Assembly (NCBI RefSeq): GCF_964194155.1
Contig: NC_135901.1
Location: 20,584,001 to 20,648,000 of the forward strand
DNA from: Cetorhinus maximus
Taxonomy: Eukaryota
Reading direction: 5' to 3'
Length of the DNA stretch: 64,000 nt
The notes beneath the pieces are model-generated. The model was not told the DNA's origin. It saw only the letters and a list, made by a program, of their open reading frames with translations, and made no database searches. Position numbers and translations under genes: made by a program. Positions 1,041 to 60,660 of this stretch are shown piece after piece; positions within the stretch are counted from its first letter, which is position 1; every line of letters starts with the position of its first letter.

Positions 1041-2412
1041 CTGATTTCGGTTTTGTAGCCATCTTTCCATCCATCTGCTGCCTGGCCCTTCACTCCACAC
1101 AGGCTGATCTTGGTCACCTTGTACACACTGTTATGGATAACAAGCGGGTTACAAAACAGAAAACAGAGAAGAGGTTAAGAGTAGCGACTCAGACTGGTAA
1201 AAGGTGGGAATTGATGTTCCATAGGGAGCAATGCTGGAACCACGGTTATTCAAATTTATACAAACGATTTGGACTCAGAAATCATAAACCCAATTTTAAA
1301 ATTTGGGAGCAGAAATACAGTAAATCACAGATAAGAATTCCCAGTTAACAAAACTTTGTTGTACAGCTCATTAAATCTTTAATTCAGTAGCAGAGTGTAC
1401 AATGACATGAGGAAGTGATGAACTGATTTATTTATGAATCAAATGATTCCTAAATTGGGAAGTACAGTTAATACTGGAGGAAGACTGCAACAAAATCCTG
1501 TGATCTAACACACACACATCAATATAGCAGGGAATTCTTGGAAACATGGTGTAGGTCCTTCTTTATCTGGAGATCAAATGTCTGTTGTATAATTGTCCCA
1601 GGAGTTAAAAGGATCCTGTGAATTCCTCCTTGTGTTATTTTAAGACAGACTTTACACTATTTATTTTTAGCTACGTTTTACTATGTTAAAGGTGCTATGT
1701 CAATACAAGTTGTTGTTGACATTGGCTTAAAGTTGTGGACTCAGGACTGTCACCAATAAATCTTAAAAACTTCACAGAATAATCACCACAGTTATTTTTA
1801 AACTGGAGACTCATTCCTGCCATTTCAGTTTCAGTCAGGAACAGAGCACAGTTTTACACCAATCTCTGATTTAACAGCACATTTCCAGACTGCCTGACTC
1901 AGGTTGTACAACCACAGTTGTAAAGGAGCCTTCTGCTCTCTGCCTAGCAGCTTTGAAACACGATGGTTACAAAACAGAAATCGGAGGGCTAGATTTACAG
2001 GGAGTTTGTATTTTTCCATCCATTTTTCTATGTGGCCTTGGACTCCACAGCCTGACCTTGGTCATCTTTAGTCTGTATGTACTGCACAGACGTGGCTGTG
2101 ACACATTTCTCACACCTCTAGATTAATCCACATGTGGGTTTTGCTGTCAGTGAAGAAATATGAGAAAGACCAAAGTGTCATTTGTCCCTCTCAGTGTGAC
2201 CCTAAAGGACTGTGTCCAGGCTGAAGTTCTGTTCCTGCCGTATGATCCTCCCCCACATTGTCCTTTCTGAGCTCCAGCCAGGTGATGTTAAACACTCAGA
2301 TGGGAAAGACAAAATTGTGCAACAATGTGTGAAAAACAAAGTTTGACATGCTATGTGACATTTATCCAGAATATTAAACAGCAGCCCATTGATATGGTTT
2401 ATTAACTTATAT

Positions 2413-4446: not shown

Positions 4447-5495
4447 TCACTTGTGAACTCGCTGATGTGTCAGCAGGGTGGATGACTGAGTGAATCCCTT
4501 CCCACACACGGAGCAGGTGAATGGCCTCTCCCCAGTGTGAACTCGCTGGTGTGTCAGCAGATCCTTTTTACTTTTAAAGGTCTTCTCACACTCAGAACAT
4601 TTAAAAGGTCTCTGATCAGTATGAACAAGTTGATGTGTCAGAAGGTGGGATGACCGAATGAATCCCTTTCCACACATGGAACATGTGAATGGCCTCTCGC
4701 CAGTGTGAACTCGCTGATGTGTCAACAGGTCAGATGAATTGGTGTATCCCTTCCCGTCCATGGAGCAGGTGAATGGCCTCTCCCCAGTGTGAATTCGCTG
4801 GTGTATCAGTAGTTTGGAAGGCCGATTAAATCCCTTGCCACAGATAAAGCAGGTGTATGGACTTTCCCCAGTGTGAATTCTCTGGTGATTCAGAAGCCCA
4901 GATAATCGCTTAAATCCTTCTCCACACAAGGAACAGATGAACGGACTCTCCCTCGTGTGAATGCGCTGGTGTGTCAGCAGGTAGGATGACTGAGTGAATC
5001 CCTTCCCACACACAGAGCAGATGAACGTCCTCTCTCCACTGTGAGTTTGCTGGTGCCTCTGAAAGTTTGATGAATGACACACACAGAGCAGATGACTGAA
5101 CTCTGCTCAGTGTGAATGTGCTGGTGTCTCATCAGGTTGGATGAATTAGTGAATCCCTTCCCACACACGGAGCAAGTGAACGGCCTCTCCCCAGTGTGAC
5201 TGCGTTGATGAATTTCCAGCTTTGACGGGGAACCAAATCCCTTCCCACAGTCCCCACATTTCCATGGTTTCTCCATGGTGCCGGTGTCCTCGTGGCTGTC
5301 CATGTTGGATGGTCAGACCAAACCTCGTACAGTTTATCCCTGCTGTGAATAATTAGATGTTTTTTCAGGCTGTGCAATTGGTTAAAACATTTCTCATTTA
5401 AGGTTCAATGATATCCAGCACCTGATGTATTGACTGAATCTGTCAGATTTTGACGTGATTTTTGGTTTGAGTTTCCTGTCAGCAAATCTTCCTGT
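4447..5495 (-). pseudogene. ZNF-1: C2H2 finger-array exon, frameshifted near 5085
   Basis: ORFs 4974-5303 ([14 protein letters not shown]...) and 4447-5082 (TGERPF-linked fingers ending HQRVHK*) lie in different frames. The leader is partly deleted and interrupted by a LINE fragment. Confidence 0.88.
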
Positions 5496-8489: not shown

Positions 8490-9170
8490 TTCTCCCCAGT
8501 TTCCCTACCCACTATCCGAAAAGTCGCTGGAGAACACATCCCCGCTATACTGCCTGCCCTGCAGTGATTCCACGCTCTAACAAGTGTTAATTAGCTGGAG
8601 ACGGGGCTTCCGCCCCTCACTCGGGAGGAAGTCCCGCCACGGAGACCAATCTGTGGCCAGCAGCTCTCCTGAGCCTGCAGCGTATGAAGCTGCAGTGGAC
8701 AAGACTGGGACTGCATGCAGTTCCCAGAGTCGATGTCCCAGGAGTCCGGGACCAGGTAAATGTGGGGATCTCAGGGTGGGGAGGGGAAGTTCAGACCAAG
8801 GGGAGCTGAGGGGGGAGGGTGCAGGTTTTGGTATAGAAGCCAGTGGGGGAGGGAGGCCCCACGGAGTCAGACCTTTTGAGGGGGCAGCCAATGTTAGAAG
8901 GGGGCTGCTGATGGAGGTGACCCCCTGCAACTTCCCAACCAAGAACCAAAAATGGTTCATTTTCAGGCTTGTCCCTCACCCCCGAACTCCGCCCACCAGC
9001 CTGATAATTGAGGCTGTGCAGGAAAAGGCTCTCAAATGGTCAATAATTGGCCAATTAAGGGCCTCAACAGATGTAAGGGCAGGCAGGCCAGCCTGGGTCT
9101 CGCTGGTCGAAGTGTAAAATTGTGGAGAGGGCGGATTGGGCGAGAGCCCGGTAGGAAGACTATCTGAGAA
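8490..9170. mobile_element. GC-rich non-autonomous DNA-transposon-like repeat (possibly Harbinger-associated)
   Basis: GC/CpG-rich block with cccgcc and aattaagggcc motifs and no credible ORF, near the Harbinger remnant. The classification is inference. Confidence 0.4.
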
Positions 9171-9255
9171 ACATGATGGTCACTCCTGACTACAAACCCA
9201 TTGGTGGAGGAACGTAAAATTCTGTCCAGGGAATATTGCTGAAAAAGGAGACATG

Positions 9256-9291: not shown

Positions 9292-9454
9292 ATTTGCAAG
9301 AAAACCAATAGTAAAGGGAACAAAAATTTATACTGCATGAGCAGAGAGTGCTGAAGTTGGCAAGTGGACTCTGATTGGTAGAGGCATTGCCATGGAGAAT
9401 GCAGCAGGGAATCGTTAACTGCAAAGCTTTTGCTTTAATACGAACCAGGTAGGT

Positions 9455-10108
9455 CATTATCCCCCAGACCCGAATATAAAACAGTGAACGTTATCCCCCC
9501 AGACTTAAATATAAAACAGTGAACATTGTCCTCCAGACCCGAATATAAAACAGTGAACATTATACCCCAAACCCGAATATAAAACAGTGAACATTATATC
9601 CAAGACCCGAATATAAAACAGTGAACATTATACCTCAGACCCGAATATAAAAGTGAACATTATACCCCAGAGCCGAATATAAAACAGTGAACATTATCCC
9701 CCCAGACTCAAATATAAAACAGTGAACATTATCCCCCAGACCCGAATATAAAACAGTGAACATTATCCCCCAGACCCGAATATAAAACAGTGAACATTAT
9801 CCCCCCAGACTCAAATATAAAACAGTGAACATTATCCCCCAGACCCGAATATAAAACAGTGAACATTATTCCCCAGACCCGAATATAAAACAGTGAACAT
9901 TATCCCCCAGACCCAAATATAAAACAGTGACCATTATCACCCAGACCTGAACATAAAACAGTGATCATTATCCCCCAGACCCGAATATAAAACAGTGAAC
10001 ATTATCCCCAGACCCGAATTTAAAACAGTGACCATTATCCCCCAGAACTGAATATAAAACAGTGAACATTTATCCCCAGACCCGAATATAAAACAGTGAA
10101 CATTGCCC
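9455..10108. repeat. 34-bp minisatellite, about 19 copies
   Basis: Unit cattatcccccagacccgaatataaaacagtgaa. Confidence 0.97.
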
Positions 10109-12384: not shown

Positions 12385-13545
<1,161 letters not shown>

Positions 13546-16132: not shown

Positions 16133-17833
16133 GTTTGACTGAGTTTGTTCTCACACTGAACAATTTCTCCTTTAACTCCTCTCACTTCCTCCAAATAAAA
16201 GGTGTGGCTATGGGTACCCGCATGGGCCCCAGCTATGCCTGTCTCTTTATGGGGTATGTGGAACATTCCTTGTTCCAGTCCTACTCCGGCCCCCTCCCAC
16301 AACTCTTTCTCCGGTACATCGATGATTACTTCGGTGCTGCTTCATGCTCTCGTCGGGACCTGGAAAAATTTATTAATTTTGCTTCCAATCTCCACCCCTC
16401 CATCATCTTCACATGGTCCATCTCTGACACTTCTCTTCCCTTCCTTGACCTCTCTGTCTCAATTTCTGATGATAGACTGTCCACCAATATCCATTACAAG
16501 CCTACCGACTCCCACAGCTACCTCGACTACAGCTCCTCACACCCCGCTTCCTGTAAAGACTCCATCCCATTCTCTCAGTTCCTTCGCCTCCGTCGCATCT
16601 GTTCTGATGACCTACCTTCAAAAACAGCTCCTCTGACATGTCCTCCTTCTTCCTTAACCGAGGTTTTCCATCCACGGTCGTTGACAGGGCCCTCAACCGT
16701 GTCCGGCCCATATCCCGCGCATCCTCCCTTACGCCTTCTCCTCCTTCCCAGAAACATGATAGGGTCCCCCTTGTCCTCACTTATCACCCCACCAGCCTCT
16801 GCATTCAAAGGATCATCCTCCGCCATTTCCGCCAACTCCAGCATGATGCCACCACCAAACACATCTTCCCTTCACCCCCCTTGACGGCATTCCGTAGGGA
16901 TCGTTCCCTCCGGGACACCCTGGTCCACTCCTCCATCACCCCCTACTCCTCAACCCCCACTTATGGCACCTCCCCATGCCCACGCAGAAGATGCAACACC
17001 TGCCCCTTCACTTCCTCTCTCCTCACCGTCCAAGGGCCCAAACACTCCTTTTAAGTAAAGCAGCATTTCACTTGCATTTCCCCTAACTTAGTCTACTGCA
17101 TTCGTTGCTCCCAATGCGGTCTCCTCTACATTGGAGAGACCAAACGCAAACTGGGCCACCGTTTTGCGGAACACCTGCGGTCTGTCCGCAAGAAAGACCC
17201 AAACCTCCCTGTCGCTTGCCATTTTAACACTCCACCCTGCTCTCTTGCCCACATGTCTGCCCTTGGCTTGCTGCATTGTTCCAGTGAAGCCCAACGCAAA
17301 CTGGAGGAACAGCACCTCATCTTCCGACTAGGCACTTTACAGCCTTCTGGGCTGAATATTGAATTCAACAACTTTAGATCTTAAACCCCCCTCCCCCCAT
17401 CCCCACCCCGTTTCTTTTCCCCCCCCACCCGCCTTTTTTTTTCAATAATTTATATAGATTCTTCTTTCCCCACCTATTTCCATTATTTTTAAATCTAAAA
17501 CTAAAACCTTTAGTCTTTCCACCCCACCCCCACTAGAGCTGTACTTTGAATATCCTGTCTTGCATTCTTAATTAGCACTTTTCTCAGACAAAGACCACCA
17601 CCTTCAACACCTCTATGACCCTTTTGTCTCTGACATCTTTTGATTATCTGCTCACACCACACCCTCAATGTGTCTCTTCCCCCTCACCCACCTTAAACCA
17701 ATTTATATTTCTCCCTTGTTGAAACTATGCTTCAGTTCTGCTGAAGGGCCATGAGGGCTCGAAACGTTGACTGATTTCTTCTCCGCCGATGCTGCCAGAC
17801 TTGCTGAGTTTTTCCAGGTAATTCTGTTTTTAT
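16133..17833 (+). mobile_element. Penelope-like element (Neptune type), 5'-truncated
   Basis: RT motifs GVAMGTRMGPSYA, RYIDD, LPFLD; linker CPRRRCNTC; GIY-YIG region. One frameshift and one stop. Flanked by agagttt(t)gacta at 16121-16132 and 17834-17846. Confidence 0.93.
17732..17774 (+). ncRNA. Minimal hammerhead motif, family A (PLE tail)
   Basis: UCAGUU-CUGCUGA-A-GGGCC(AUGAG)GGCUC-GAAA-CGUU-GACUGA. Stems I and II pair; core position 6 is C instead of A. Confidence 0.7.
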
Positions 17834-21039: not shown

Positions 21040-21430
21040 GATGGCGGGGTCTATACCCAGCATTCCGAGCGGTAATGATTGTTCCCTAGCCACGCCTCAG
21101 GAGAGCAGTGCGCAGGCGCAGCGTCGGGTGCATGCGCAACACGAGGGATGGCGATGGGGAAAGTTGCTTCTTTGTCTCATCTGCAGCCGGTAAGAAAACG
21201 GAAACACAGAGGCAGCGGTGGAGCCGGCGGGTGGACAGGGAGGGTTTTTAAACGCCTGGTGAAGCCCTCAAATCTGGAATACGGACCTGCAGCTCCCGCG
21301 TTTGCAGCTTTTAGACTATTTCCCGAGAACAAGCCCAGGTTAACGGCCGCCATCTTGATTCAAGGGGGCAGAGTGAATGCGCGGCCATCTTGGTGATGTA
21401 AAAAAAGTGGGCGGGGTTTCAAGATTTGTG
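21040..21430. promoter_or_regulatory. CpG island, ZNF-3 promoter/first exon
   Basis: NRF1-like TGCGCAGGCGCA at 21109, donor-like cg/gtaaga at about 21189, YY1-type GCCGCCATCTT at 21346, and a GC box. 21220-21357 is homologous to the reverse of 30225-30362. Confidence 0.75.
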
Positions 21431-22865: not shown

Positions 22866-23036
22866 CTTTGCTTTTGTTGGGACTTTGTTGCTGATTTTGG
22901 TTTCTTTTAGTTTGATTGGGCAACATGCTTGGAGGAAACAAGGAAGAGGAAAAAATGTTCCATAGAAACTAGAATAATCTGTTCTGAATTTCTATCCTGC
23001 ACTGACAGTGATGACTTTTGTAAACTCCTTTTACAG

Positions 23037-24243
23037 GATATTAGAATGGGAGGATTTGCAGAGAGAAATTTCAAATCAAACATCATGTCAAGATCTGACA
23101 GTTGCTCGATTCATCAGGACCTGAATATCATTGGCCATTGAATGTGGAATGAGAAATGTTTGTCTGTTCTGTCTGTCGGAAAAGATTTCAACCATCAGTG
23201 TGACTGGAAAAGTACCAAGACACACACACATCTCAGTGAGAGTGTCCAAGTGCACGGACCGTGGAAAGAGCTCTAACCAGCTACACAGCCTGAAAAAAAA
23301 TCACACCATTCACAGCGGGGAGAAAACGTGCACGTGTTCTGTGTGTGGACGAGGCTTCCATTGATCATTCAACCTAGAGAGAGACGAGGACACTGGCACC
23401 ACGGAGAAACCGTGGAAATGTGGCGACTGTGGGAAGGGCTTCAGATCCCCGTCCATGCTGGAAATTCGTCGACGCAGTCACACCAGGGAGAGACCGTTCA
23501 CCTGCTCCGTATGTGGGAAGGGATTCAATCAGTCATCCAGCTTACAAAAACACCATAGAACTCACACTGGGGAGAAGCCATTCACCTGCTCCGAGTGTGG
23601 GAAGGAATTCAGTCAAGTAACCGACCTCACGTCACACCATCTTATTCATTCTGACATGAGACCTTTTAAATGTGCTGACTGTGAGAAGAGCTTTAAAAGC
23701 AAAAAGGTTTTACTGTTGCACCAACAAATTCACACTGAGGAGAGGCCGTTCATCTGCTCCGTGTGTTGTAAGGGATTCACTCAGTCATCCAGCCTGCTGA
23801 AACACCAGAGAACTCACACTGGGGAGAGACCATTCACCTGCTCTGAGTGTGGGAAAGGATTCACCATTTCAGCCCACCTGCTGAGACACCAATGAGTTCA
23901 CTCTGACACGAGATCTTTTAAATGTTCTGACTGTGGGAGGAGCTTTAAAGGCAAATTGGATCTGCAGATTCACCAGCAAGTTCACACTGGAGAGAGGCCA
24001 TTCACCTGCTCCGCCTGTGGGAAGGGATTCACTCAGTCATGTACCCTGCTGAATCACCAGCGAGTTCACACTGGGGAGAGGCCATTCACCTGTTCCGTGT
24101 GTGCAAAGGGATTCACTCAGTTATCTCACTTGCAGAGACACCGACACACTCACACTGGGGAGAGACCGTTCACCTGCTCCGTCTGTGGGAAGGGATTCAC
24201 TTGTTCATCGTACCTGCTGAGACACCAGCAAGTTCATAAGTGA
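23037..24243 (+). pseudogene. ZNF-3: C2H2 finger-array exon with lost start and internal stop
   Basis: Acceptor tccttttacag at 23036. ACCATGGAG has become ACCACGGAG (about 23400), and a TGA at 23893 interrupts a colinear array that ends HQQVHK*. Confidence 0.85.
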
Positions 24244-28669: not shown

Positions 28670-29785
28670 TCACTTGTGAACTCGCTGGTGTGCCAAAAGG
28701 TTGGATGAATTAATGAATCCCTTCCCACACTTGGAGCAGGTGAACGGCCTCTCCCCAGTGTGAACTCGCTGGTGTGTCAGTAGGTTGGATGAATTAATGA
28801 ATCCCTTCCCACACTTGGAGCAGGTGAACAGCCTCTCCCCAGTGTGAACTCGTCGGTGTGCAATGAGGTGTGATGAACTCCTGAACCTCTTTCCGCAGTA
28901 AGTGCTGCTGAACGGTCTCTCCTCAGTGTGAGTTCGTTGATGTGACAGGAGGCAGGATGAATCAGTAAATCCTTTTCCACACATGGAGCAGATGAACGGT
29001 CTCTCCCCAGTGTGAACTCGCTGGTGTATCAGCAGGTGGGATGACCGTGTGAATCCCTCCCTACACACAGTGCAGGGGAATGGCCCCTCCCCAGTGTGAA
29101 TTCGCTGGTGTGTCAGCAGGTTGGATGACTTAGTGAATCTCTTCCCACACACAGAGCAGGTGAACGGCCTTTCCCCTGTGTGAACTCACTGGTGTGTAAT
29201 GAGTGCCTGACTGCCTGAAGCGCTTTCCACAGAAAGTGCAGCTGAATGGCTTCTCCTGAGTGTTAATTAGTTGGTGTGACTGGAGACAGGATAATTCTGT
29301 GAATCCCTTCCTGCACACAGAGCAGGTGAATGGTTTCTCCCCTGTGTGACTGCGTCGATGAGTTTCTAGCGTGGATGGGCATTTGAATCCCTTTCCACAG
29401 TCCCCACATTTCCACGGTTTCCCCATTGTGCCGGTGTCCTTGTGTTTCTCGAGGCTGGATGATCAGTTGAAGTCTCATCCGCACAAAGAACACGTTTATG
29501 GTTTCTCCCCACTACAAACAATGTGACGCTTTCTCAGGCTGTGTAACCGGTTAAAGATCTTTCCACAGTCAGTGTACTGGAACACTCTCACTCGGGTGTG
29601 TGTGTCTGGCTGCTTTTCTAGTCACACAAATGTTTGAAATCTTCCCTCCAGACTGAAGAGACAAACATTTATCCTTCCACATTCGAAGGCCGATGATGCT
29701 CAGGTTCAAATGAATTGAGTGACTGTCAGATCTTGATGTGATGTTTGGTTCGAGTTTCCCATCTGCAAACCCTCATCTAACCTGT
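28670..29785 (-). pseudogene. ZNF-4: C2H2 finger-array exon, frameshift near 29200
   Basis: ORFs 29130-29426 (MGKPWKC..) and 28670-29152. The last two fingers are a near-exact 84-bp duplication. Acceptor tccttttacag near 29782. Confidence 0.88.
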
Positions 29786-30214
29786 AAAAGGAGTTTGCAA
29801 AAGTCATCACTGTCAGTCCAGGACAGAAATTCAGAAAAAACAATTCTATTTTTGATGGAACATTTTTTCCTCTCTTGTTCCCCCAAAGCTGTAAATTCCC
29901 GTCCCACACACTCTCCCTCCTCCCAGGGCTGAAATCCAAACCCATCTCACCATTTGTTTCCTCCACTCCCATTTCTCCCTCTCTCTCCTCTGCCTGGGTT
30001 CAGTTCTCCAGCTCCTGTCTGCAGACTGACAATAAAATCAATGAGTCTTATTGGGGGTTTGGGGCCTCCAGCGGGTGTTTCTGAATCCTCCCCGCCCACC
30101 TCCCAGGGTTTCCTTCCTTCCCACAGATCAGATCCTCATCGATTTGAGCCCAAAGTGTAACCTCTTATTTATTGTCCCCCCTCCCCCATCCTCTGATGTG
30201 AACCATCCTCCACT

Positions 30215-30700
30215 CGCTGACCCAGGATGGCGGCCGTTAACCTGGGCCTGTTCCCGGGAGGGAGAAGCCCCGCAGCTGCAAACCAGGAGCTGACAATTAT
30301 TCCTCAGGGTTTGCGGATCCACAAAGTGTTTCCAAATCCTCCCCGTCCAGCCGCCGGCTCCATCGCTCCCTCCCCCCGGGCCTGTCACCGCGGGGTAAAC
30401 ACGGGGCCTGGGGCCTACCCCAGAAGTTGATCCAGTTCCCAATCCAGCCACGGTTTCCATTCCTACCCTGTGCTCACAATCTCCTCCCGCCTCCCGAACC
30501 GTCCGCTCCTCCTCACTCTGTCACCATGACTGACACTGAGCATGCTCAGAACGCACACCCACACTGCACCTGCGCACTGGGAACGGGTTCAACGGCCTCT
30601 GCCATCTTGGGAGAGGAAGGCGGGTCTTGTTCAGGGAGCAGAGCGCATGGGTGGCCATCTTGGTGAGGGAATGGGGACTGAGGGCGGGGCTTCCTCCATG
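30215..30700. promoter_or_regulatory. CpG island, ZNF-4 promoter/first exon
   Basis: GATGGCGGCC, two GCCATCTTGG, ctgagcatgctcag, tgcacctgcgca and a GC box. Confidence 0.75.
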
Positions 30701-31109: not shown

Positions 31110-32728
31110 ACTGTGGATGCTGGAAATCTGAAATAAAAACAGAAAATGCTGGAAAAACTCAACAGGTCTGACGGCATCTTTTTTTAAAATTCATTCATGG
31201 GATGTGAGCTTCGCTGGCTGGGCCAGCATTTATTGCCCATCCCTAGTTGCCCTTGAGATGGTGCTGGTCGGCTGCCTCCTTGAACCACTGCAGTCCATCT
31301 GGTATAGGTACACCCACATTGTTGTTAGGAAGGGAGATCCAGGATTTTGACCCAGCAACAGTGAAGGAATGATATATTTCCAAGTCATGATGGTGAGTGA
31401 CTTGGAGGGGAGCATCCAGGTGGTGGTGTTCTTATCTATCTGCTGCCCTTTGTTCTTCCAGATGGTCGTGGTATAGGGTTTGGAAGGTGCTCTCTAAGGA
31501 GCCTTGGTGAGTTCCTGCAGTGCATCTTGTAGATGGTACACACTGCTGCTACTGTGCATCTCTGCTGAAAGGAGTAAATGTTTGTGGATGTGGAGCCAAT
31601 CAAGCAGGCCACTTTGTCCTGGATGGTGTCAAGCTTCTTGAGTGTTGTGGGAGCTGCACTCATCCAGGCAAGTGGGGAGTATTCCATCACGCTCTTGACT
31701 TGTGCCTTTAGATGGTGGACAGGCTTTGGGGAGTCTGGAGGTGGGTTACTCATCGCACGATTTCTAGCCTCTGACCTGCTCTTGCCACCACGGTATTTAT
31801 ATGGTTAGTCCAGTTCAGTTCATGGTCAATGGTCACCCCTAAGGTGTTGATAGCGGGGGATTCAGTTATGGTAATGCCATTGAACATCAAGGGGCGACGG
31901 TTGGATTCTCTCTTGTTGGAGATAGTCATTGCCTGGCATTTGTGTGGCACGAATGTTACTTGCCACTTGTCAGCCCAAGCCTGGATATTGTCCAGGTCTT
32001 GCTGCATTTGGACATGGACTGCTTCAGTATCTGAGAAGTTGCGAATGGTGCTAAACATTATGCAATCATCAGCGAACATCTCCAATTCTGACCTTATGAT
32101 GGAAGGTAGGTCATTGATGAAGCAGCTGAAGATGGTTGGGCTGAGGACGCTCCACCGAGGAACTCCTGCGGTGATGTCCTGGAGCTGAATGACTGACCTC
32201 CAACAAGCACAGCCATCTTCCTTTGTGCTAGGTGTGACTCCAACCGGTGAAGAATTTTCCCCCGATTCCCATTGACTCCAGTTTTTCTCGGGCTCCTTGA
32301 TGCCACACTCTGTCAAATACTGCCTTGATGTCAAGGTCAGTCATGCTCACCTCACTTCTGGAGTTCAGCTCTTTTGTCCATGTATGAACCCAGGCTGTAA
32401 TGAGGTCAGGAGCTGAGTGGCCCTGGCGGAACCCAAACTGAGTGTCAGTGAGCAGGTTATTGCTAAGCAAGTGCTGCTTGATAGCACTGTTGATAACCCC
32501 TTCCATTACTTTACTGATGATCGAGAGTTGACTGATGGGCTGGTAATTGGCCCGGTTGGATTTGACCTGCTTTTTGTGTACAGGACATACCTGGGCAATT
32601 TTCCACATAGCTGGGTAGATGCCAGTGTTGTAGCTGTACTGGAGCAGCTTGGCTAGGGGCATGGCAAGTTTTGTGGAGAGAGAAACAGAGTTCAAGATTT
32701 GAGTCAGTATGACTCTTCTTCAGAGCTC
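31110..32728 (-). mobile_element. Short PLE-tail element split in two (31110-31178 and 32673-32728), degenerate hammerhead at 32688-32728
   Basis: Removing 31179-32672 rejoins ...ggtctgacggcatct|gtggagagagaaacagagtt..., as in the intact copies. Confidence 0.8.
31178..32672 (-). mobile_element. CR1-group LINE (RT and 3' tail); probable partner of the tRNA SINE
   Basis: WKIAQVCPVHKK, QFGFRQGHS, DIKAVFDRVWH, GVPRWSVLSP, MFADD. Tail gggcaataaatgctggcc..cccatgaatgaat is shared with the SINEs. Confidence 0.9.
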
Positions 32729-32735
32729 AATCCCT

Positions 32736-34384
32736 CATCACGACTGTGTTGCCCTTTACCCCGACCATCCCCAAGTCCCACTCACGCATCACAACTGTGC
32801 TGCCCTTTACCCCGACCATCCCCAAGTCCCACTCACGCATCACGACTGTGCTGCCCTTTACCCCGAAAGTCCCCAAGTCCCACTCATGCATCATGACTGT
32901 GCTGCCCTTTGCCCCGACCATCCCCAAGTCCCACTCACGCATCACGACTGTGCTGCCCTTTACCCCGACCATCCCCAAGTCCCACTCACGCATCACGACT
33001 ATGCTGCCCTTTACCCCGACCATCCCCAAGTCCCACTCACGCATCACGACTGTGCTGCCCTTTACCCTGACCATCCCCAAGTCCCACTCACGCATCACGA
33101 CTGTGCTGCCCTTTACCCCGACCGTCCCCAAGTCCCACTCACGCATCACGACTGTGCTGCCCTTTCCCCCGAACGTCCCCAAGTCCCACTCAAGCATCAC
33201 GACTGTGCTGCCCTTTACCCCGATCGTCCCCAAGTCCCAATCATGCATCAAGACTGTGCTGCCCTTTACCCCGACCGTCCCCAAGTCCCACTCACGCATC
33301 ACGACCGTGCTGCCCTTTACCCCGAACGTCCCCAAGTCCCACTCACGCATCACGACCGTGCTGCCCTTTACCCCGAACGTCCCCAAGTCCCACTCACGCA
33401 TCACGACCGTGCTGCCCTTTACCCCGAACGTCCCCAAGTCCCACTCACGCATCACGACCGTGCTGCCCTTTACCCCGAACGTCCCCAAGTCCCACTCACG
33501 CATCACGACCGTGCTGCCCTTTACCCCGAACGTCCCCAAGTCCCACTCACGCATCACGACCGTGCTGCCCTTTACCCCGAACGTCCCCAAGTCCCACTCA
33601 CGCATCACGACCGTGCTGCCCTTTACCCCGAACGTCCCCAAGTCCCACTCACGCATCACGACCGTGCTGCCCTTTACCCCGAACGTCCCCAAGTCCCACT
33701 CACGCATCACGACCGTGCTGCCCTTTACCCCGAACGTCCCCAAGTCCCACTCACGCATCACGACCGTGCTGCCCTTTACCCCGAACGTCCCCAAGTCCCA
33801 CTCACGCATCACGACTGTGCTGCCCTTTACCCCGAACGTCCCCAAGTCCCATTCAAGCATCACGACTGTGCTGACCTTTACCCCGACCGTCCCCAAGTCC
33901 CACTCACGCGTCACGACTGTGCTGCCCTTTACCCCGACCGTCCCCAAGTCCCACTCACGCGTCACGACCGTGCTGCCCTTTACCCCGAACGTCCCCAAGT
34001 CCCACTCACGCGTCACGACTGTGCTGCCCTTTACCCCGAACGTCCCCAAGTCCCACTCACGCGTCACGACTGTGCTGCCCTTTACCCCGACCGTCCCCAA
34101 GTCCCACTCACGCGTCACGACTGTGCTGCCCTTTACCCCGACCGTCCCCAAGTCCCACTCAAGCATCAAGACTGTGCTGCCCTGTGCCCCGACCGTCCCC
34201 CAAGTCCCACTCCCCCATCACGACTGTGCTGTCCTTTACCCCGACCATCCCCAAGTCCCACTCACGCATCACGACTGTGCTGCCCTTTACGCCGAACATC
34301 CCCAAGTCCCACTCACGCATCAAGACTGTGCTGCCCTTTACCCCGACCGTCCCCAAGTCCCACTCCCCCAACATGACTGTGCTC
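32736..34384. repeat. 51-bp minisatellite, about 32 copies
   Basis: Unit catcacgactgtgctgccctttaccccgaccatccccaagtcccactcacg, with about 10 identical units in the centre. Confidence 0.98.
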
Positions 34385-34815
34385 ACTGACCTACAAAGGC
34401 TCCAGCTCCACCAATGCCTCCATTTTCAAATTCTAATCTCCTGTTCAAATCCCTTCAGTTCCACACCCCCTGCCGATGTCTGTAACATTCTCCAACCGTA
34501 CAACCCTCAGAGAGCTCTGTATCCCGCCATCTCAGGCCTCTTACACATCCCTCACTCTCTCTGTCCCATTGGCCATGCCTTCAGTCATCGGCCTTAACCC
34601 TGGACTTCCTTCCCTATCCCTCTCTGCCGGTCCACAGCTCTACCCCTTTAAGAGCCTCTTAAACATATATATCTTTTACTAAGCCTTTAGTTAGCCCTCT
34701 TAATGTCCTCTTCTTTGGCTCAGTGTCAGGTTTTGTCTGATTTGTCAGTTTATGCTTCTGAGATTCACCATGAGACATCACACCCTAAAGGTGTGATGTA
34801 AAGGAAAGTTATTTT
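34360..34815 (+). mobile_element. L2 LINE 3' end
   Basis: VLTDLQRLQLHQCLHFQIL..CNILQPYNPQRAL..SGLLHIP..IGHAFS matches the L2 ORF2 end (VL..LHWLP...R..FKIL...P.R.LRS...G.RAFS). Confidence 0.82.
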
Positions 34816-36628: not shown

Positions 36629-38170
36629 TCACTTGGGAATTCCCTGGTGTCTCAGAAGATTGGATGACTGAGCAAATCTGTTCCCACATGTGGAGCAAGT
36701 GAATGACCTCTCTCTAGTGTGAAGCTGCTGGTGTCTCAGCAGGTGGGATGACTGAGTGAATCTCTTCCCACATGTGGAGCAGGTGAATGACCTCTCTCCT
36801 GTGTGAGTTTGCTGGTGTCTCAGCAGGTCCTTTGTGTTCTTAAAGCTCTTCTCACAGTCAGGACATTTAAAAGGTCTGTGATCAGTGTGAACAAGTTGAT
36901 GTACAGTGAGCTGGGATGGCTGAGTGAACCCCATTCCCACACGTGGAGCAAGTGAACGGTCTCTCCCTAGTGTGAATTCGCTCATGTATCAGAAGGTGGG
37001 GTGAATTAGTGAACCCCTTCCCACACACAGAGCAAATGAATGGCCTCTCGCCGGTGTGAACTCGCTGGTGTCTCAGATGCTGGGATGAATGGGTGAATCC
37101 TATCCCACTCACAGAGCAGGTGCATGGCCTCTCCCCTGTGTGAATTCGCTGGTGTGTCGCGAGATCCTGTTTGCTTTTAAAGCTCTTCTCACAGTCAGAA
37201 TATTGAAATGGTCTCTTGTCAGAGTGAACGCGTTGGTGTGTCAGCAGGTGGGATAAAAGTCTGAATCTCTTCTCACACAGGGGGCAGATGAATGGTTTCT
37301 CCTCAGTGTGAGTGCGTTGATGGGCTTGTAAATCATTTTCACTTTTAAAACACTTCCAACAGTGAGAACATTGAAAAGGTCGCTGATCAGAGTGAACAAG
37401 TTGGTGTCTCAGAAGGTGGGATGATTGAGTGAATCCCTTTCCATACACGGAGCAGAGGAAAGGCCTCACCCCCATATGAGTGCGTTGGTGTCTCTGCAGG
37501 TCCTTTGTGCTTTTAAAGCTTTTCTCACAGGGAGAACATTGAAAAGGTCTCTGATCAGAGTGAATCTGCTGGTGAATCAGGAGGTTTGATAAAGCATTAC
37601 ATCCATTCCCACATTCGAGGCAGGTCAATGGCCTCTCGCCAGTATGAACACGGTGTGTATAGAGACTGGATGAGAGAGCAAATCCCTTCTCATGCTCAGA
37701 GCAGGTGAATGGCCTCTCTCCGGTGTGACTGTGTTGATGAATATCCAGTTCAGATTGGTAACTGAATCCCTTCCCACAGTCCCCAAATTTCCACAGTTTC
37801 CCTGTGGTGTGGCTATCCTCATGTGTCTCCAGGTTGGATGATCAGTTGAAGCCCTCTTTGCAAAGAATACGTGTATGGTTTCTACTCACTGTCAATGGTG
37901 TGAAGATTTTTAGGCTGTGTAACTGGTTATAGCTCTTTCTGCAGTCAATACACTGGAACACACACACTCTGGTTGGTGTGTCTCACTGCTTTTCCAGTCA
38001 CACAGATGTTTGAAATCTTTTCCCACAGAAAGAATAGACAAACATTTCTCCTTCCACATTCAAAGGCTGATGAAATTCAGGTCCTTATGAATGGTGTGAC
38101 TTTTAAATCTTGGATGTGAAGATTGATTTGAGTTTCCTGTCTGTAAATATTCCACTTCTGATACTGTGTA
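36629..38170 (-). pseudogene. ZNF-5: C2H2 finger-array exon, start lost and at least two frameshifts
   Basis: Fingers continue across ORFs 36882-37628 and 36629-36985. The leader has ACCACAGGG in place of ACCATGGAG. Confidence 0.88.
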
Positions 38171-38444: not shown

Positions 38445-40346
38445 AAAAACAAAAAACTACTGCGGATGCTGGAAATCCAAAACAAAAACAGAATTACCTG
38501 GAAAAACTCAGCAGGTCTGGCAGCATCGGCGGAGAAGAAAAGAGTTGACGTTTCGAGTCCTCATGACCCTTTAACAGAACTAAGTAAAAATAGGAGAGGG
38601 GTGAAATATAAGCTGGTTGAAGGTGGGTGTGGAGAGAAGTTGGTGGGGGGGGGTGGTGGTTGTAGGGACAAGCAAGCAGTGATAGGAGCAGATAATCAAA
38701 AGATGTCACAGATAAAGGAACAAAGAGGTGTTGAAGGTGGTGATGTTATCTAAGAGAATGTGCTAATTAAGAATGGATGGCAGGGCACTCAAGGTGCAGC
38801 TCTAGTGGGGGTGGGGTGGAAAGACTGACAGAGCATTACAGGTATAGATTTAAAAATAATGGAAATAGGTGGGAAAAGAAAAATCTATATAAATTATTGG
38901 AAAAAACAAAAGGGAGGGGGAAGAAAAGGAAAGGGGGTGGGGATGGACGAGGGAGTTCAAGATCTAAAGTTGTTGAATTCAATATTCAGTCCAGAAGGTT
39001 GTAAAGTGCCTAGTCGGAAGATGAGGTGCTGTTCCTCCAGTTTGCGTTGGGCTTCACTGGAACAATGCAGCAAGCCAAGGACAGACATGTTGGCAAGAGA
39101 GCAGGGTGGAGTGTTAAAATGGCAAGCGACAGGGAGGTTTGGGTCTTTCTTGCGGACAGACCGCAGGTGTTCTGCAAAGCGGTCACCCAGTTTACGTTTG
39201 GTCTCTCCAATGTAGAGGAGACCGCATTGGGAGCAATGAATGCAGTAGACTAAGTTAGGGGAAATGCAAGTGAAATGTTGCTTCACTTGAAAGGAGTGTT
39301 TGGGCCCTTGGACGGTGAGGAGAGAGGAAGTGAAGGGGCAGGTGTTGCATCTTCTGCGTGGGCATGGGGAGGTACCATAGGTGAGAGTTGAGGAGTAGGG
39401 GGTGATGGAGGAGTGGACCAGGGTTGCCCAGAGGGAACGATCCCTATGGAATGCCACCAGGGGGGGTGAAGGGAAGATGTGTTTGGTGGTGGCATCATGC
39501 TGGAGTTGGCGGAAATGGCGGAGGATGATCCTTTGAATGCGGAGGCTGGTGGGGTGATAAGTGAGGACAAGGGGGACCCTAGCATGTTTCTGGGAGGGAG
39601 GAGAAGGCATGAGGGCGGATGTGCGGGAGATGGGCCGGACACCTTTGAGGGCCCTGTCAACGACCGTCGGTGGAAAACCTCGGTTAAGGAAGGAGGATGA
39701 CATGTCAGAGGAACTGTTTTTGAAGGTAGCATCAACAGAACAGATGCGACGGAGGCGAAGGAACTGAGAGAATGGGATGGAGTCCTTACAGGAAGCGGGG
39801 TGTGAGGAGCTGTAGTCGTGGTAGCTGTGGGAGTCGGTAGGCTTGTAATGGATATTGGTGGACAGTCTATCACCAGAAATTGAGACAGAGCGGTCAAGGA
39901 AGGGAAGGGAAGTTTCAGAGATGGACCATGTGAAAATGATGGAGGGGTGGAGATTGGAAGCAAAATTAATAAATTTTTCCAGGTCCCTACGAGAGCATGA
40001 AGCAGCACCGAAGTAATCGTCGATGTACCGGAGAAAGAGTTGTGGGAGGGGGCCGGAGTAGGACTGGTACAAGGAATGTTCCACATACCCCATAAAGAGA
40101 CAGGCATAGCTGGGGCCCATGCGGGTACCCATAGCCACACCTTTTATTTGGAGGAAGTGAGAGGATTTTAAAGAGAAATTGTTCAGTGTGAGAACAAGTT
40201 CAGCCACACGAAGGAGAGTAGTGGTGGATGGGGATTGTTCGGGCCTCTGTTCAAGGAAGAAGCTAAGGGCCCTCAGACCATCTTGGTGGGGGATGGAGAT
40301 GTAGAGGGATTGGACATCCATGGTGAAGAGGAAGCGGTTGGGGCCA
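38445..40346 (-). mobile_element. Penelope-like element (Neptune type), left arm of palindrome; RT plus GIY-YIG frame open to the stop at 38957
   Basis: MDVQSLY, GVAMGTRMGPSYA, RYIDD, CPRRRCNTC, LVYCIHCSQCGLLYIGET..R..EH, HFN, GLN. Confidence 0.95.
38543..38581 (-). ncRNA. Minimal hammerhead motif, family A (left arm), G8 mutated
   Basis: AGUU-CUGUUAA-A-GGGUC(AUGAG)GACUC-GAAA-CGUC-AACU. Confidence 0.62.
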
Positions 40347-42257
40347 ATTTCCAGTTCCCTGGCCCCAACCGCTTCCTCTTCACCATGGATGTCCAATCCC
40401 TCTACATCTCCATCCCCCACCAAGATGGTCTGAGGGCCCTTAGCTTCTTCCTTGAACAGAGGCCCGAACAATCCCCATCCACCACTACTCTCCTTCGTGT
40501 GGCTGAACTTGTTCTCACACTGAACAATTTCTCCTTAAACTCCTCTCACTTCCTCCAAATAAAAGGTGTGGCTATGGGTACACGCATGGGCCCCAGCTAT
40601 GCCTGTCTCTTTATGGGGTATGTGGAACATTCCTTGTTCCAGTCCTACTCCGGCCCCCTCCCACAACTCTTTCTCCGGTACATCGATGATTACTTTGGTG
40701 CTGCTTCATGCTCTCGTCGGGACCTGGAAAAATTTGTTAATTTTGCTTCCAATCTCCATCATTTTCACATGGTCCATCTCTGACACTTCCCTTCCCTTCC
40801 TTGACCTCTCTGTCTCAATTTCTGATGATAGACTGTCCACCAATATCCATTACAAGCCTACCGACTCCCACAGCTACCTCGACTACAGCTCCTCACACCC
40901 CGCTTCCTGTAAGGACTCCATCCCATTCTCTCAGTTCCTTCGCCTCCGTCACATCTGTTCTGATGATGCTACCTTCAAAAACAGTTCCTCTGACTTGTCC
41001 TCCTTCTTCCTTAACCGAGATTTTCCACCCACGGCCGTTGACAGGGCCCTCAACCGTGTCCGGCCCATCTCCTGCGCATCTGCCCATACGCCTTCTCCTC
41101 CCTCCCGGAAACATGATAGGGTCACCCTTGTCCTCACTTATCACCCCACCAGCCTCCGCATTCAAAGGATCATCCTCCGCCATTTCCGCCAACTCCAGCA
41201 TGATGCCACCACCAAACACATCTTCCCTTCACCCCCCTGGCGTCATTCCGTAGGGATCGTTCCCTCCGGGACACCTTGGTCCACTCTCCATCACCCCCTA
41301 CTCCTCAACCCCCACCTATGGCACCTCCCCATGCCCACGCAGAAGATACAACACCTGCCCCTTCACTTCCTCTCTCCTCACCGTCCAAGGGCCAAACACT
41401 CCTTTAAAGTGAAGCAACATTTCACTTGCATTTCCACTAACTTAGTCTACTGCATTCATTGCTCCCAATGCGGTCTCCTCTACATTGGAGAGACCAAAGG
41501 TAAACCGGGCGACCACTTTGCAGAACACCTGCGGTCTGTCCGCAAGAAAGACCCAAACCTCCTGTCGCTTGCCATTTTAACACTCCACCCTGCTCTCTTG
41601 CCAACATGTCTGTCCTTGGCTTGCTGCATTGTTCCAGTGAAGCCCAACGCAAACTGGAGGAACAGCACCTCATCTCCCGACTAGGCACTTTACAGCCTTC
41701 CGGACTGAATACTGAATTCAACAACTTTAGATCTTGAACTCCCTCGTCCATCCCCACCCCCTTTCCGTTTCTCCCCCCTCCCTTTTGTTTTTTCCAATAA
41801 TTTACATAGATTTTTCTTTTCCCACCTATTTCCATTATTTTTAAATCTATACCTGTAATGCTCTGTCAGTCTTTCCACCCCACCCCCACTAGAGCTGCAC
41901 CTTGAGTGTCCTGCCATCCATTTTTAATTAGCACATTCTCTTAGATAATATCACCACCTTCAACAGCTCTTTGTTCCTTTATCTGTGACATCTTTTGATT
42001 ATCTGCTCCTATCACTGCTTGCTTGTCCCTAAAACCACCCCCCCTCCCAACTTCTCTCCCCCAACCCCCCCCCCCTCCCCACCTTAAACCAGCTTATATT
42101 TCACTCCTCCTATTTTTACTTAGTTCTGTTGAAGGGTCATGAGGACTCGAAACGTCAACTCTTTTCTTCTCCGCCGATGCTGCCAGACCTGCTGAGTTTT
42201 TCCAGGTATTTCTGTTTTTGTTTTGGATTTCCAGCATCCGCGGTTTTTTGTTTTTGT
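40346..42257 (+). mobile_element. Penelope-like element, right arm of palindrome (frameshifted)
   Basis: Reverse complement of the left arm with several small deletions. Confidence 0.95.
42122..42160 (+). ncRNA. Minimal hammerhead motif, family A (right arm)
   Basis: AGUU-CUGUUGA-A-GGGUC(AUGAG)GACUC-GAAA-CGUC-AACU; palindromic ACGU stem III; predicted cleavage after GUC (C42156). Confidence 0.75.
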
Positions 42258-42419
42258 TCTTATTGGGGGTTTGGGGCCTCCAGCGGGTGTTTCTGAATCC
42301 TCCCCGCCCACCTCCCAGGGTTTGCTTCCTTCCCACTGATCAGATTCCTCATTGGTTTGAGCCCAAAGTGTAACCTCTTATTTATTGTCCCCCCTCCCCC
42401 ATCCTCTGATGTGAACCAT

Positions 42420-42965
42420 CCTCCACTCGCTGACCCAGGATGGCGGCCGTTAACCTGGGCCTGTTCCCGGGAGGGAGAAGCCCCGCAGCTGCAAACCAGG
42501 AGCTGACAATTATTCCTCAGGGTTTGCGGATCCACAAAGTGTTTCCAAATTCTCCCCGTCCTGCCGCCGGCTCCATCGCTCCCTCCCCCCGGGCCTGTCA
42601 CCGCGGGGTAAACACGGGGCCTGGGGCCTACCCCAGAAGTTGATCCAGTTCCTAGTCCAGCCTCGGTTTCCATTCCTACCCTGTGCTCACTATCTCCTCC
42701 CGCCTCCCGAACCGTCCGCTCCTCCTCACTGTCACCATGACTGACACTGAGCATGCTCAGAGCGCACACCCACACTGCACCTGCGCACTGGGAACGGGAT
42801 CACCGGCCTCTGCCATCTTGGGAGAGGAAAGCGGGTCTTGCTCAGGGTGCCGGGCGCATGGGTGGCCATCTTGGTGGGGGAAGAGAGGAGTGAGGACGGG
42901 GCTACCTCCCCGGTGACAGGTCCAGGTTACCCGGGCAACCGGCCGCCGCCATCTTGCACTGACGT
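42420..42965. promoter_or_regulatory. CpG island between divergent ZNF-5 and ZNF-6; candidate bidirectional promoter
   Basis: YY1-type motifs face outwards on both sides (GATGGCGGCC at about 42439; GCCATCTTG at about 42812, 42865, 42948) around ctgagcatgctcag. Confidence 0.72.
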
Positions 42966-48170: not shown

Positions 48171-49040
48171 ATCAAGCATTGAACTTATCAGCCATCACAG
48201 AACCCAACAAATCAGAGTGGAAGCAAGTCATCCTCGATCCTGAGGGACTGCCTAAGATATAGGCAGTTTGGGCAGATCAGGGAGGTGGGTCTCCCTTCCT
48301 GGTGACAGGCCCTTGTTACTCCAGCTGCTGGTTCCCATTTGAGTGAGGAAGACAGGGCTTGTTCAACCAGCAGGGTGCAAGTGCAGCCATCTTGGTGAGA
48401 GCCAATCTAGTAGGCAGGACTTCGGGGTCCCAGTGACCAGGAAAGAAAATTATTGACTCATTGATTTTACTCTCAGTCTGCAAACAGGGAGTAGCAAACT
48501 GAACCCAGACAGATTAAAGAGAGAGAGAGAGAAAACTGGGAATGGAGGTAAGAAACTTAACTGGATTCTGTGCAGGCAAGAGGGAGAGTGTGTGGGATGG
48601 GGAGCAAAAGTGAAAAATGTTCCACAGAAACTAGAACTGTCAGTTCTGAATTTCTATCCTGGACTTAAAGTGATGACATTTGTAAACTCCTTTCACAGGG
48701 CATTAGAAAGGGAGGATTTACAGACAGGAAACTCAAACCAAACATCACATCAAGATCTGACAGAACCACTCAATGCATCTGGACCTGAATATCATTGGCA
48801 TTTAAATGTGAAGGAGAAATATTTGTCTCTTCTGTCTGTGGGAAAAGATTTCAAACATCAGTGTGACAGGAAAAACACTGAGACACACACACCCGAGTGA
48901 GTGTGTTCCAATGCACAACTGTGGAAAGAGCTTTAACCAGTTAGCCTGAAAAAGCATCGCATTGTTCACAGTGGGAGAAACTGTACATGTGTTGTGTGTA
49001 TGGATGAGGCTTCAACTAATTATCCAACCTGGAGAGAGAC

Positions 49041-50162
49041 ATGGACACGGGGACCATGGAGAAACCGTGGAAATGTGAGGACTGTGGGAAAGGATTCAAT
49101 TATCCATCCCTTCTGGAAATCCATCGACGCAGCCACATTAGGGCCGACACTTTGGAGAAACCGTGGAAATGTGAGGACTGTGGTAAAGGATTCTATTATC
49201 CACGCCAGCTGGAAATGCATCAGCGCAGTCACACTGGGGAGAAGCCGTTCATCTGTTCCATATGTGGGAAGGGATTTACTCGAACATCCTGCCTCATGTT
49301 ACACCAGAGAATTCACACTGAAGAGAGGCCGTTCAGCTGCACATACTGTGGAAAGAGGTTCAGGCGGTCATCCCATCTCACTGCACACCAGCAACTTCAC
49401 ACTGGGGAGAGGCTGTTCACCTGCTCTGTGTGTGGGAAGGGATTCACTCATTCATCCGGTCTTCAGTCACACCAACAAATTCACACTGAAGAGAAGCCAT
49501 TCAACTGTACTTCCTGTAGAAAGAGGTTCAGGCATTCATCTGCCCTTGTTGAACACCAGCGAGTTCACACTGGGGAGAAGCCATTCACCTGTTCTGTGTG
49601 TGGGAGGGGATTTGCTCGGTCATCCACCCTGCTGTCACACCAGCGAATTCACACAGGGGAGAGGCCATTTTACTGTACTTGCTGTGGAACGAGGTTCAGG
49701 CGTTCAGCCGACCTCGATTCACATAAGCGAGTTCACACCGGGGAGAGGCCGTTCACCTGCTCTGTGTGTGGGAAGGGATTCGCTCAGTCATCCACCCTGC
49801 TGACACACCAGCGAGTTCACACTGGGGAGAAGCCATTCAGCTGCACTTCATGTGGGAAGAGTTTCAGGCTGTCATCCGCCCTCACTGCTCACCAACGCAC
49901 ACACACTGGGGAGAGACCGTTCACCTGTTCCGTGTGTGGGAAGGGATTCACTCAGTCTGGGAGCCTGCAATTACACGAACGCACTCACACTGGGGAGAAG
50001 CCATTCACCTGCTCCACGTGTGGGAAGGGATTCACTCAGTCTGGCAGCCTGCATTTACATGAACGCACTCATACCGGAGAGAAGCCATTCATCTGCTCCG
50101 TGTGTGGGAAGGGATTCACTCAGCCTGGCAGCCTGCTGAGACACCAGCGAGTTCACAAGTGA
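49041..50162 (+). CDS. ZNF-6: intact 13-finger C2H2 zinc-finger protein, no KRAB/SCAN/BTB visible
   Basis: Open 373-codon frame; Kozak ACCATGG at MEKPWKC (49056); 13 CX2CX12HX3H fingers with TGE(K/R)PF-type linkers; acceptor tcctttcacag near 48698. Confidence 0.9.
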
Positions 50163-53975: not shown

Positions 53976-55138
<1,163 letters not shown>

Positions 55139-59819: not shown

Positions 59820-59955
59820 ATTCAGACAATGTAAATATTTTTCTTGGTTTGCGTTTACTGTGTGTGAATCCTCCCCTTCTAACCCCCTGTAAAAGGAGTT
59901 TCCAAAATCTATCCCTGTCAGTCCATGATGGAAATTCATAACATTCTCTTCTCGT
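59820..59955 (-). pseudogene. Extra copy of the ZNF acceptor/leader module
   Basis: Minus strand aactccttttacagGGGGTTAGAAGGGGAGGATT..CAAACCAA matches the start of every ZNF exon here. Confidence 0.78.
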
Positions 59956-60294: not shown

Positions 60295-60660
60295 CATTGC
60301 CCCCTACAAAGATGGCGGCCGTACATGCGCCTGCTGCACGTTGCCCCCAATAAAGATGGCGACCCGGTCACTGGAAGTTGTGGCCTCGCTCCATGCAAAC
60401 GGGGGACCGATAAGATGTTTTTCTGGGTTTGGGCTTGCCCAACATGTTTACGAAGCCTCCCCGCCCACCCGCTGGATCCATCGCTCTCTCCGTCCCGCCA
60501 TCTCCCTCTTACCGATTGCGGATCTGACAAGAGTCTCTGCATCACCATTACCTGCACTATGCATGCTTCAGTCACAGCCCGGCCCCGCCCCTCGTTCACT
60601 CCGATTGGTTGGAGAACCAACCACCCCTGCGCGGTCCTCCAACCCCACCCCTTCTGATTG
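60295..60660. promoter_or_regulatory. CpG island, probable ZNF-7 promoter
   Basis: YY1-type AAGATGGCG at about 60309 and 60353, GC box ggccccgcccc at 60581, reverse CCAAT at about 60604. Confidence 0.72.

Follow-up and report, generated by a model that had tools for sequence, protein, structure and literature searches.

Shared in-frame stops in a shark zinc-finger family as probable fossils of a founder truncation

Why should neighbouring zinc-finger genes carry in-frame stops at the same codons, in fingers that lie ahead of their start codon? The question is raised by a 64-kb stretch of the Cetorhinus maximus genome (C24:20584001-20648000; C24 is a chromosome of 65.16 Mb), referred to here as the window, which contains seven exons encoding arrays of C2H2 zinc fingers. 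An earlier note on this sequence had proposed that the founder of the family lost its N-terminal region, restarted internally at MEKPWKC and then expanded, three former fingers being left in the 5′ leader.

The zinc-finger exons of the window

The exons and associated features are listed by window position; F1 to F3 are the leader fingers, and types A and B are the two layouts described below.

4974..5492, minus strand: ZNF-1, type A with a leader deletion; stop 2 at 5313-5315, ATG at 5274-5276, frameshift past two fingers
12722..13536, minus strand: ZNF-2; stops at 13369-13371, 13321-13323 (the F2 Cys) and 13211-13213, ATG at 13172-13174, array broken
21130..21189, plus strand: candidate short non-coding exon 1 of ZNF-3, with a putative start site and a GCATGCGC box, then a donor GT at 21190
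23035..23036, plus strand: splice acceptor AG of the ZNF-3 main exon; the homologous site is where contigs of runs guessed to be RNA switch sequence
23037..23155, plus strand: linker part of the ZNF-3 leader, homologous to the open N-terminal peptide of L118, L169 and L183 and of shark and ray protein models
23156..23400, plus strand: dead fingers F1-F3 of ZNF-3, with a frameshift between F1 and F2
23201..23203, plus strand: stop 1 of ZNF-3, TGA at helix +3 of F1 (TGG, Trp, in the three open paralogues)
23362..23364, plus strand: stop 2 of ZNF-3, TGA at helix -1 of F3 (CGG, CGA and GGC in the open paralogues, CGA or CAA in type B)
23401..24243, plus strand: ZNF-3 array; restart codon ACG (ATG in the close paralogues L002-L008), TGA at 23893-23895
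29130..29781, minus strand: ZNF-4; stops at 29622-29624 and 29463-29465, ATG at 29424-29426, array frameshifted early
36882..38165, minus strand: ZNF-5; stops at 37998-38000 and 37842-37844, ACA at the restart position
48699..50162, plus strand: ZNF-6; stops at 48864-48866 (TGA) and 49017-49019 (TAA), ATG at 49056 and a second in-frame ATG at 49041
53976..55135, minus strand: ZNF-7, type B, without F1-F2; ATG (MEGK) at 55010-55012, CAA at site 2, TAG at 54887-54889
59844..59886, minus strand: orphan acceptor and start of a linker, without fingers, between a candidate exon 1 (about 60513-60565, minus strand) and ZNF-7

All 11 stop positions given in the earlier note, which quotes the lowest base of the codon for genes on the minus strand, were correct: site 1 is TGA in ZNF-2 to ZNF-6, and site 2 is TGA in ZNF-1 to ZNF-5 and TAA in ZNF-6. 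Their placement at helix positions +3 and -1 was reproduced from the C-x2-C-x3-F pattern. That the leader is derived from fingers was also borne out, since its in-frame translation, with stops written as X, matches Pfam zf-C2H2 over four stretches, including the first array finger (E 9.6e-23). Other points needed amendment. A linker and three leader fingers had been described for each exon, but in ZNF-1 finger 1, parts of fingers 2 and 3 and the acceptor are gone, and ZNF-7 is without fingers 1 and 2. The restart sequence ACCATGGAG, ascribed to the family as a whole, is exact only in ZNF-1 and ZNF-6 (two of six), although an ATG is present in four of six; the context is ACTATGG in ZNF-2 and ACAATGG (giving MGKP) in ZNF-4, and the codon itself is ACG in ZNF-3 and ACA in ZNF-5. 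ZNF-7 does have Gln at site 2 (CAA), but as a member of a different layout with an earlier ATG, not as an exception to the stop at that site.

ZNF-6 is the sole intact type-A gene of the window, a single ORF of 368 aa with 13 fingers, in which a Pfam scan gave 12 PF00096 stretches (E 5.5e-78) and families of finger type only. The other type-A copies run into a stop or a frame shift after 1-5 fingers. ZNF-3 is likely to be a pseudogene copy; an upstream ATG at 23156 opens a 15-codon frame that terminates at stop 1.

The orphan at 59844-59886 (minus strand) is one of a number of stand-alone, fingerless copies of the acceptor and linker, many of them ending at a GT donor, that were seen inside or between ZNF genes (L128:658, L066, L095, L102, L158 and others). 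These are likely to be additional non-coding 5′ exons produced by duplication of the module. A CpG-rich block upstream of ZNF-4 (30046-30697) is 96% identical to one upstream of ZNF-5 (42258-42909), whereas the exons of the two genes are only about 75% alike, which suggests promoter swapping or conversion; a related block also lies upstream of ZNF-2. The window further contains a 3.8-kb inverted repeat (38445-42255, 94% identical) in which a reverse-transcriptase element, its ORFs reaching 525 aa, is present twice, head to head. Another copy of this element lies at 16133-17831, and there are long tandem repeats at 32703-34597 and 9454-10108, one a CpG-rich array with several open frames and one a 69-bp-type repeat.

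Family size, layouts and selection on the leader

The exact restart motif occurs 853 times in the genome. As only 14 of 55 diverse type-A copies match it exactly, this number is a floor for the size of the family. A 31-nt pattern around site 1 gave 243 exact genome copies with TGA (none for the reversed control) and 34 with a codon that does not start with T; in the 30 of these 34 that were read, other leader stops or frameshifts remain, and none of these copies proved open in the long-layout comparison below. An evenly spaced sample of C24 (57 x 10 kb) yielded 13 type-A copies, 2 type-A copies with deletions, 16 type-B copies and 16 partial ones, from which rough scaling gives 1,500-1,700 type-A and 1,800 type-B copies on the chromosome. 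Copies were also seen scattered on C32, C37, C22, C1, C6, C7 and C13, several on C32 having the same score.

The second family, type B, to which ZNF-7 belongs, had gone unmentioned in the earlier note. It came to light at site 2, where the genome has 737 copies with a sense codon vs 284 with TGA or TAA: 29 of the 30 sense-codon loci read were type B and the other was L118. In type B the linker is joined directly to finger 3 and an ATG opens the sequence MEGK. The linker has an in-frame stop upstream of this ATG in 25 of 27 copies, and none of 28 is out of frame between F3 and F4. Since both types leave the linker untranslated but use restart ATGs that are not homologous, we infer two independent truncations, that of type B one finger earlier. 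The short layout also occurs with an open linker, in models from sawshark, zebra shark, bamboo shark and ray, and fingers 1-2 may have been either gained or lost between the short and long layouts.

Several rearranged forms were noted in passing. A third layout, derived from type B by deletion of finger 3 so that the signature finger (see below) leads, is found at L101:4949, L155:3606 (minus strand) and L075:5021 (minus strand). Two tandem leaders (leader, finger-4 start, second leader) in L182, L199, L203 and L164 imply that the leader itself duplicates. Tail-to-tail pairs of type-B genes about 5.2 kb apart recur in C24:2-18 Mb (L128/L129, L133/L134, L138/L139, L144/L145), pointing to large segmental duplications.

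The leader was analysed in a set of 55 type-A representatives less than 93% identical to one another, a mixture of evenly spaced and similarity-picked loci from which two very divergent long rows and four mis-typed rows were left out. Site 1 is TGA in 40, TAA in 2 and a sense codon in 13; site 2 is TGA in 42, TAA in 5, sense in 6 (AGA in 3) and unreadable in 2. Both stops are present in 35 copies and at least one in 54. Some of the copies with sense codons could predate a stop rather than be reversions, and the two stops may not have been simultaneous. Five C24 matches listed as free of stops were all frameshifted type A. In pooled contigs of organisms A, C, D and F no alternative letter reaches 30% or more at either stop (among 40 of 43 rows). 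The first Cys codon of finger 2 is the site of a third stop, which the earlier note does not mention and which 19 of the 55 copies carry; as this stop is confined to part of the family and Cys predominates at the codon in organisms C, D and F, it is younger.

The leader evolves like non-coding DNA and purifying selection acts from MEKPWKC onward. The frame is broken between F1 and F4 in 31 of 52 type-A copies but between F4 and F5 in only 4 of 52. Extra stops occupy 110 of 4186 leader codons (2.63%; 20 of them at the partly shared F2 Cys site) vs 3 of 1463 and 3 of 1483 (0.2%) in F4 and F5. Divergence at the three codon positions of the leader shows no periodicity (0.108/0.118/0.120). With the leader's own spectrum of substitutions as the null, dN/dS in the leader is 0.64 (expected 0.73), in F4 0.36 (0.75) and in F5 0.47 (0.73). 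The restart ATG is kept in 47 of 55 copies, of which 45 have a purine at -3 and 46 a G at +4; a run of at least five fingers follows in 26 of the 47, and the remaining 21 have under five before a stop. Within the leader, stop 1 (40/55) and stop 2 (42/53) rank 47th and 33rd of 80 codons in retention, the leader median being 0.77. The stops are thus kept no better than adjacent codons and are passively inherited, not maintained. Two upstream ATGs fare no better (32/47 and 27/54), and a selected uORF role for what the earlier note called a finger-derived leader/uORF is not supported.

Origin of the stops and use of the start codon

An open frame from F1 to F4 is found in only three of 111 long-layout copies: L118 (on C6), L169 (C1) and L183 (C1920), the last two identified by a protein search with the N-terminus of L118 (150 listed of 152 matches). 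In each of them site 1 codes for Trp (TGG) and site 2 for Arg or Gly, and the restart position lacks an ATG. In-frame ATGs lie close to the acceptor in L118 and L169. L183 has none ahead of finger 1 and would need an upstream exon, which is absent from its scaffold; this locus (C1920:51251-52500) has strongly GC-rich codons and lies directly after 51 kb of satellite. A search for an upstream coding exon shared by the three genes matched only repeats. The loss that can be demonstrated is thus one of about 40 residues and three fingers and not of an effector domain, and a lost upstream effector exon is not supported. Expressed paralogues with an open leader had been named in the earlier note as a refutation of the founder proposal. 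Open-leader paralogues exist, but as they lie off C24 and mostly fall outside type A in trees, they represent the ancestral state of the leader, in all likelihood, and not a refutation. When the protein collection was searched for orthologues of these open genes, most candidates (82/93 and 18/24) were unrelated finger proteins. In catshark model P0134 the leader is frameshifted, site 1 encodes Trp and site 2 has an N-G-G codon; this model is possibly a relative of the open genes that has decayed.

Trees of the family are star-like in shape. With the trait codons masked (27 of the 55 type-A copies, 13 type B and the 3 open genes), type A falls on one side of a branch (94/85, unstarred). In the best tree of all 55 type-A copies and the 3 open genes type A is not together, although a type-A clade is not rejected (AU p 0.445), and a reference-projected alignment puts L169 within type A, unsupported. 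From these sequences a single origin of stop-bearing type A is likely. The MEKPWKC context occurs at the start of, or within, source-named models from Heterodontus, Chiloscyllium, Scyliorhinus and Pristiophorus, and the Pristiophorus (sawshark) model, in a shifted frame, implies T-N-A at site 2; together these suggest that the truncation arose early in sharks.

A short exon 1 with a GT donor lies upstream of both type-A and type-B genes. Its ATG is in phase 0, 1 or 2 relative to the donor depending on the gene, so exon 1 is likely to be non-coding. Contigs from seven runs guessed to be RNA, although none is on record as such, and from one DNA-like run were compared with paralogue L154. Several contigs match from the acceptor onward and carry different sequence ahead of it, and some bridge both stop sites and reach the start; the loose end of the DNA-like run at the acceptor is pyrimidine-rich intron sequence. 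Depth at the acceptor steps 13-61 fold in three guessed-RNA runs and 2.4 fold in the DNA-like run X21, these being summed contig depths that cannot rank gene parts. A loose-end motif from run X9 had no match among the fetched loci. These data give hints that the leader is retained in mature mRNA as 5′ UTR. Upstream ATGs are present in all 47 ATG-bearing leaders (mean 4.3), and in 25 an out-of-frame uORF overlaps the start. Passage beyond upstream ATGs occurs by leaky scanning or re-initiation, and initiation at MEKPWKC, the predicted translation start, would need one or the other; type-A translation may be poor as a result.

It is very probable, in our judgement, that the shared stops are fossils of one founder whose leader fingers became 5′ UTR before tandem duplication, and we infer both the single origin and the following order of events. 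Nonsense changes in the founder would have converted TGG to TGA in finger 1 and CGA to TGA in finger 3. A new ATG in Kozak context ahead of finger 4 would have made the first three fingers an untranslated 5′ leader, and tandem duplication would have spread this dead-finger leader to many hundreds of genes. Ribosomes would get past about four upstream ATGs to MEKPWKC, giving a finger-only protein that opens with the signature finger. The sister family, type B, would have undergone the same kind of truncation independently. In its core, then, the proposal of a founder that lost its N-terminus, restarted and expanded has survived the family-wide count of stops, the open paralogues, the comparison of selection in leader and array and the CpG control described next.

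Site 2 derives from CGA, a CpG hotspot, and its stop could have recurred by deamination in many decaying copies; type B, in which the site is coding, has acquired one independent TGA (28 copies: CGA 18, CAA 8, TGA 1), and sense codons are common at the site (the 737 copies above). Yet three other CGA codons in the type-A leader, used as a control, have become TGA and CAA in 11 and 8, 7 and 9, and 16 and 22 copies, whereas site 2 is TGA in 42, CAA in none and CGA in one. This difference from the control codons excludes recurrent deamination at site 2. Site 1 derives from TGG, which contains no CpG, and the sense-pattern loci inspected were type B apart from L118, so that this explanation, which the earlier note had named as a possible refutation, is highly improbable. 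Recoding of UGA, as selenocysteine or by read-through, would give full-length proteins with three more fingers, and it could draw on the predominance of TGA, the CT that follows stop 1 and the Cys codon under the third stop in 19 of 55 copies. The earlier note disfavoured it on account of leader frameshifts, and 31 of 52 leaders are out of frame, which refutes it for most copies. In 2 and 5 copies, moreover, the stop is TAA and not TGA, additional stops accumulate at the neutral rate, CT belongs to the ordinary Leu of helix +4, and neither SECIS nor any other Rfam family was matched in the window (0 matches). Recoding can hardly be credited at all.

If the dead fingers were instead spliced out, an upstream coding (effector) exon might be joined to the array. 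Heterodontus gene model P0087 jumps from the linker to just ahead of MEKPWKC and the N-terminus of catshark model P0010, on a type-B-like exon, is long and acidic, but no GT-AG joint was among the best 15 joints listed in either comparison (with 191 and 91 further joints), and Pfam found no non-finger domain in P0010. Contigs of the guessed-RNA runs, X1 record 5 and X13 record 13 for instance, span both stop sites and continue into the start, and the varying phase of the exon-1 ATG and the lack of a coding exon common to the three open genes also tell against splicing, which is very unlikely. Type A might also be mostly an array of pseudogenes with MEKPWKC unused, given that 5 of 6 type-A copies in the window are broken, that 21 of 47 ATG-bearing copies have fewer than 5 fingers and that the load of upstream ATGs is heavy. 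Against this, purifying selection starts exactly at the ATG (stops 0.2% vs 2.3-2.8% expected; F4 dN/dS 0.36), and the restart ATG and subsequent codons are among the best kept. A family consisting mostly of pseudogenes with MEKPWKC unused is very improbable.

Besides this founder truncation, which it would supplement, the dead-finger leader may have been kept and co-opted to tune the family, as a cis-element in DNA or RNA or as a uORF brake; we regard this as possible but doubtful. Divergence in a 90-nt core just past stop 1 (leader +168 to +258) is 0.61 of that expected from composition, below all 5000 column and 5000 block permutations, although this segment was picked after the data had been seen and local differences in mutation rate could also apply. 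The core shows little codon periodicity (0.53/0.57/0.67). In pooled contigs of other organisms one majority difference is listed in L154:9010-9150 vs 12 sites in 9152-9255, and upstream ATGs are present in every leader. However, neither these ATGs nor the stops exceed the leader median in retention, the leader has no conserved RNA fold (mean z -1.3, SCI 0.27), there is no Rfam match in the window, and the core is missing from type B and, through deletion, from certain intact type-A copies, e.g. L066_2807p. Linkage gave no clear signal of gene conversion either way, r2 showing no significant fall with distance (Spearman -0.03, p 0.13).

The signature finger and relation to known families

Whatever the fate of the leader, the finger that follows it is unusual. 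Finger 4 has the signature W-K-C...P-S-x-L-E, with Pro at helix +1 in 58 of 59 copies and, in 53 of these 59, a Trp preceding the first Cys; the two occur jointly in only 2 of 424 downstream fingers, whose contact positions are variable, and are present in two ray models. The signature finger is first or second in type A, in type B and in the deletion variants L101, L155 and L075. A more far-reaching reading, which is speculative and on the whole unlikely, would see in sharks and rays a KRAB-free ZNF system of thousands of finger-only proteins. Its signature finger (W-K-C, Pro +1, Glu +5) would be a co-repressor docking site kept N-terminal by at least three independent truncations, and the fossil fingers of type A would be recycled as a shared cis-element controlling expression.

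The genes are tandem C2H2 (Kruppel-type) genes, with PF00096 fingers and H-C linkers in one exon. KZNF genes have tandem C2H2 arrays with KRAB at the N-terminus, as described for their gene structure in the consulted parts of PMC10547256. The KRAB-ZNF clusters of tetrapods and other sarcopterygians resemble the shark family in their tandem arrays in a large terminal exon, TGEKP linkers, birth-and-death evolution and many pseudogenes. They differ from it in that the shark genes have a probably non-coding exon 1, a fossil leader and, in the proteins submitted to Pfam (ZNF-6, L118, L169 and P0010), neither KRAB nor any other N-terminal domain. The upstream in-frame stops bar any N-terminal extension of type-A and type-B proteins. 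According to the portions of two papers that were available, KRAB families were lost in cartilaginous fishes (PMC8455134) and PRDM9 alone was found in the whale shark (PMC11603059).

A closer parallel is offered by the cyprinid FiNZ-ZNF genes (about 700 in zebrafish), a lineage-specific expansion with an N-terminal hallmark according to the sections seen of PMC10547256. Both families have undergone mass expansion in one lineage with a common N-terminal hallmark, but the FiNZ hallmark is a translated acidic domain of 28 aa on its own exon, whereas that of the sharks is untranslated dead coding sequence and their translated hallmark is a finger. Types A and B have no translated N-terminal domain; the open linker peptide of L118, L169 and L183 stands outside this comparison. 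The supplement of Wells et al. 2023, so far as it was available, puts the ZNF ORFs of six shark assemblies at 703-3586 and those of a skate at 1223 (PMC10547256). In that form the shark expansion is known as a count, the available text offering no account of gene structure for sharks and its main text no match to the terms shark, chondrichth or cartilaginous. A literature search of mainly open-access sources, some of them in part only, found no account of this dead-finger leader.

The expansion of tandem ZNF genes is itself known; what is new here is a probable founder truncation that duplication has preserved in hundreds to thousands of genes. Loss of an N-terminus through a nonsense mutation, with restart farther downstream, is known from single genes or alleles, as are uORF leaders. 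The elementary mechanism is the same, but in the shark case it probably stands at the root of hundreds to thousands of copies and has happened twice, in sister families.

Cartilaginous fishes have thousands of ZNF genes, reportedly without KRAB families, and the mechanism of their expansion now has a gene structure: two mega-families, each born of a truncation, finger-only and keeping one unusual finger. The dead leader also accounts for peculiar automatic gene models in which introns or frame shifts have been invented across it. The leader copies form a large natural data set on coding sequence decaying into UTR, for which the open-frame paralogues L118, L169 and L183 are living models of the ancestor. 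Zebrafish FZNFs are said to have been knocked down together, and hundreds of the shark genes could likewise be knocked down jointly via their shared start sequence.
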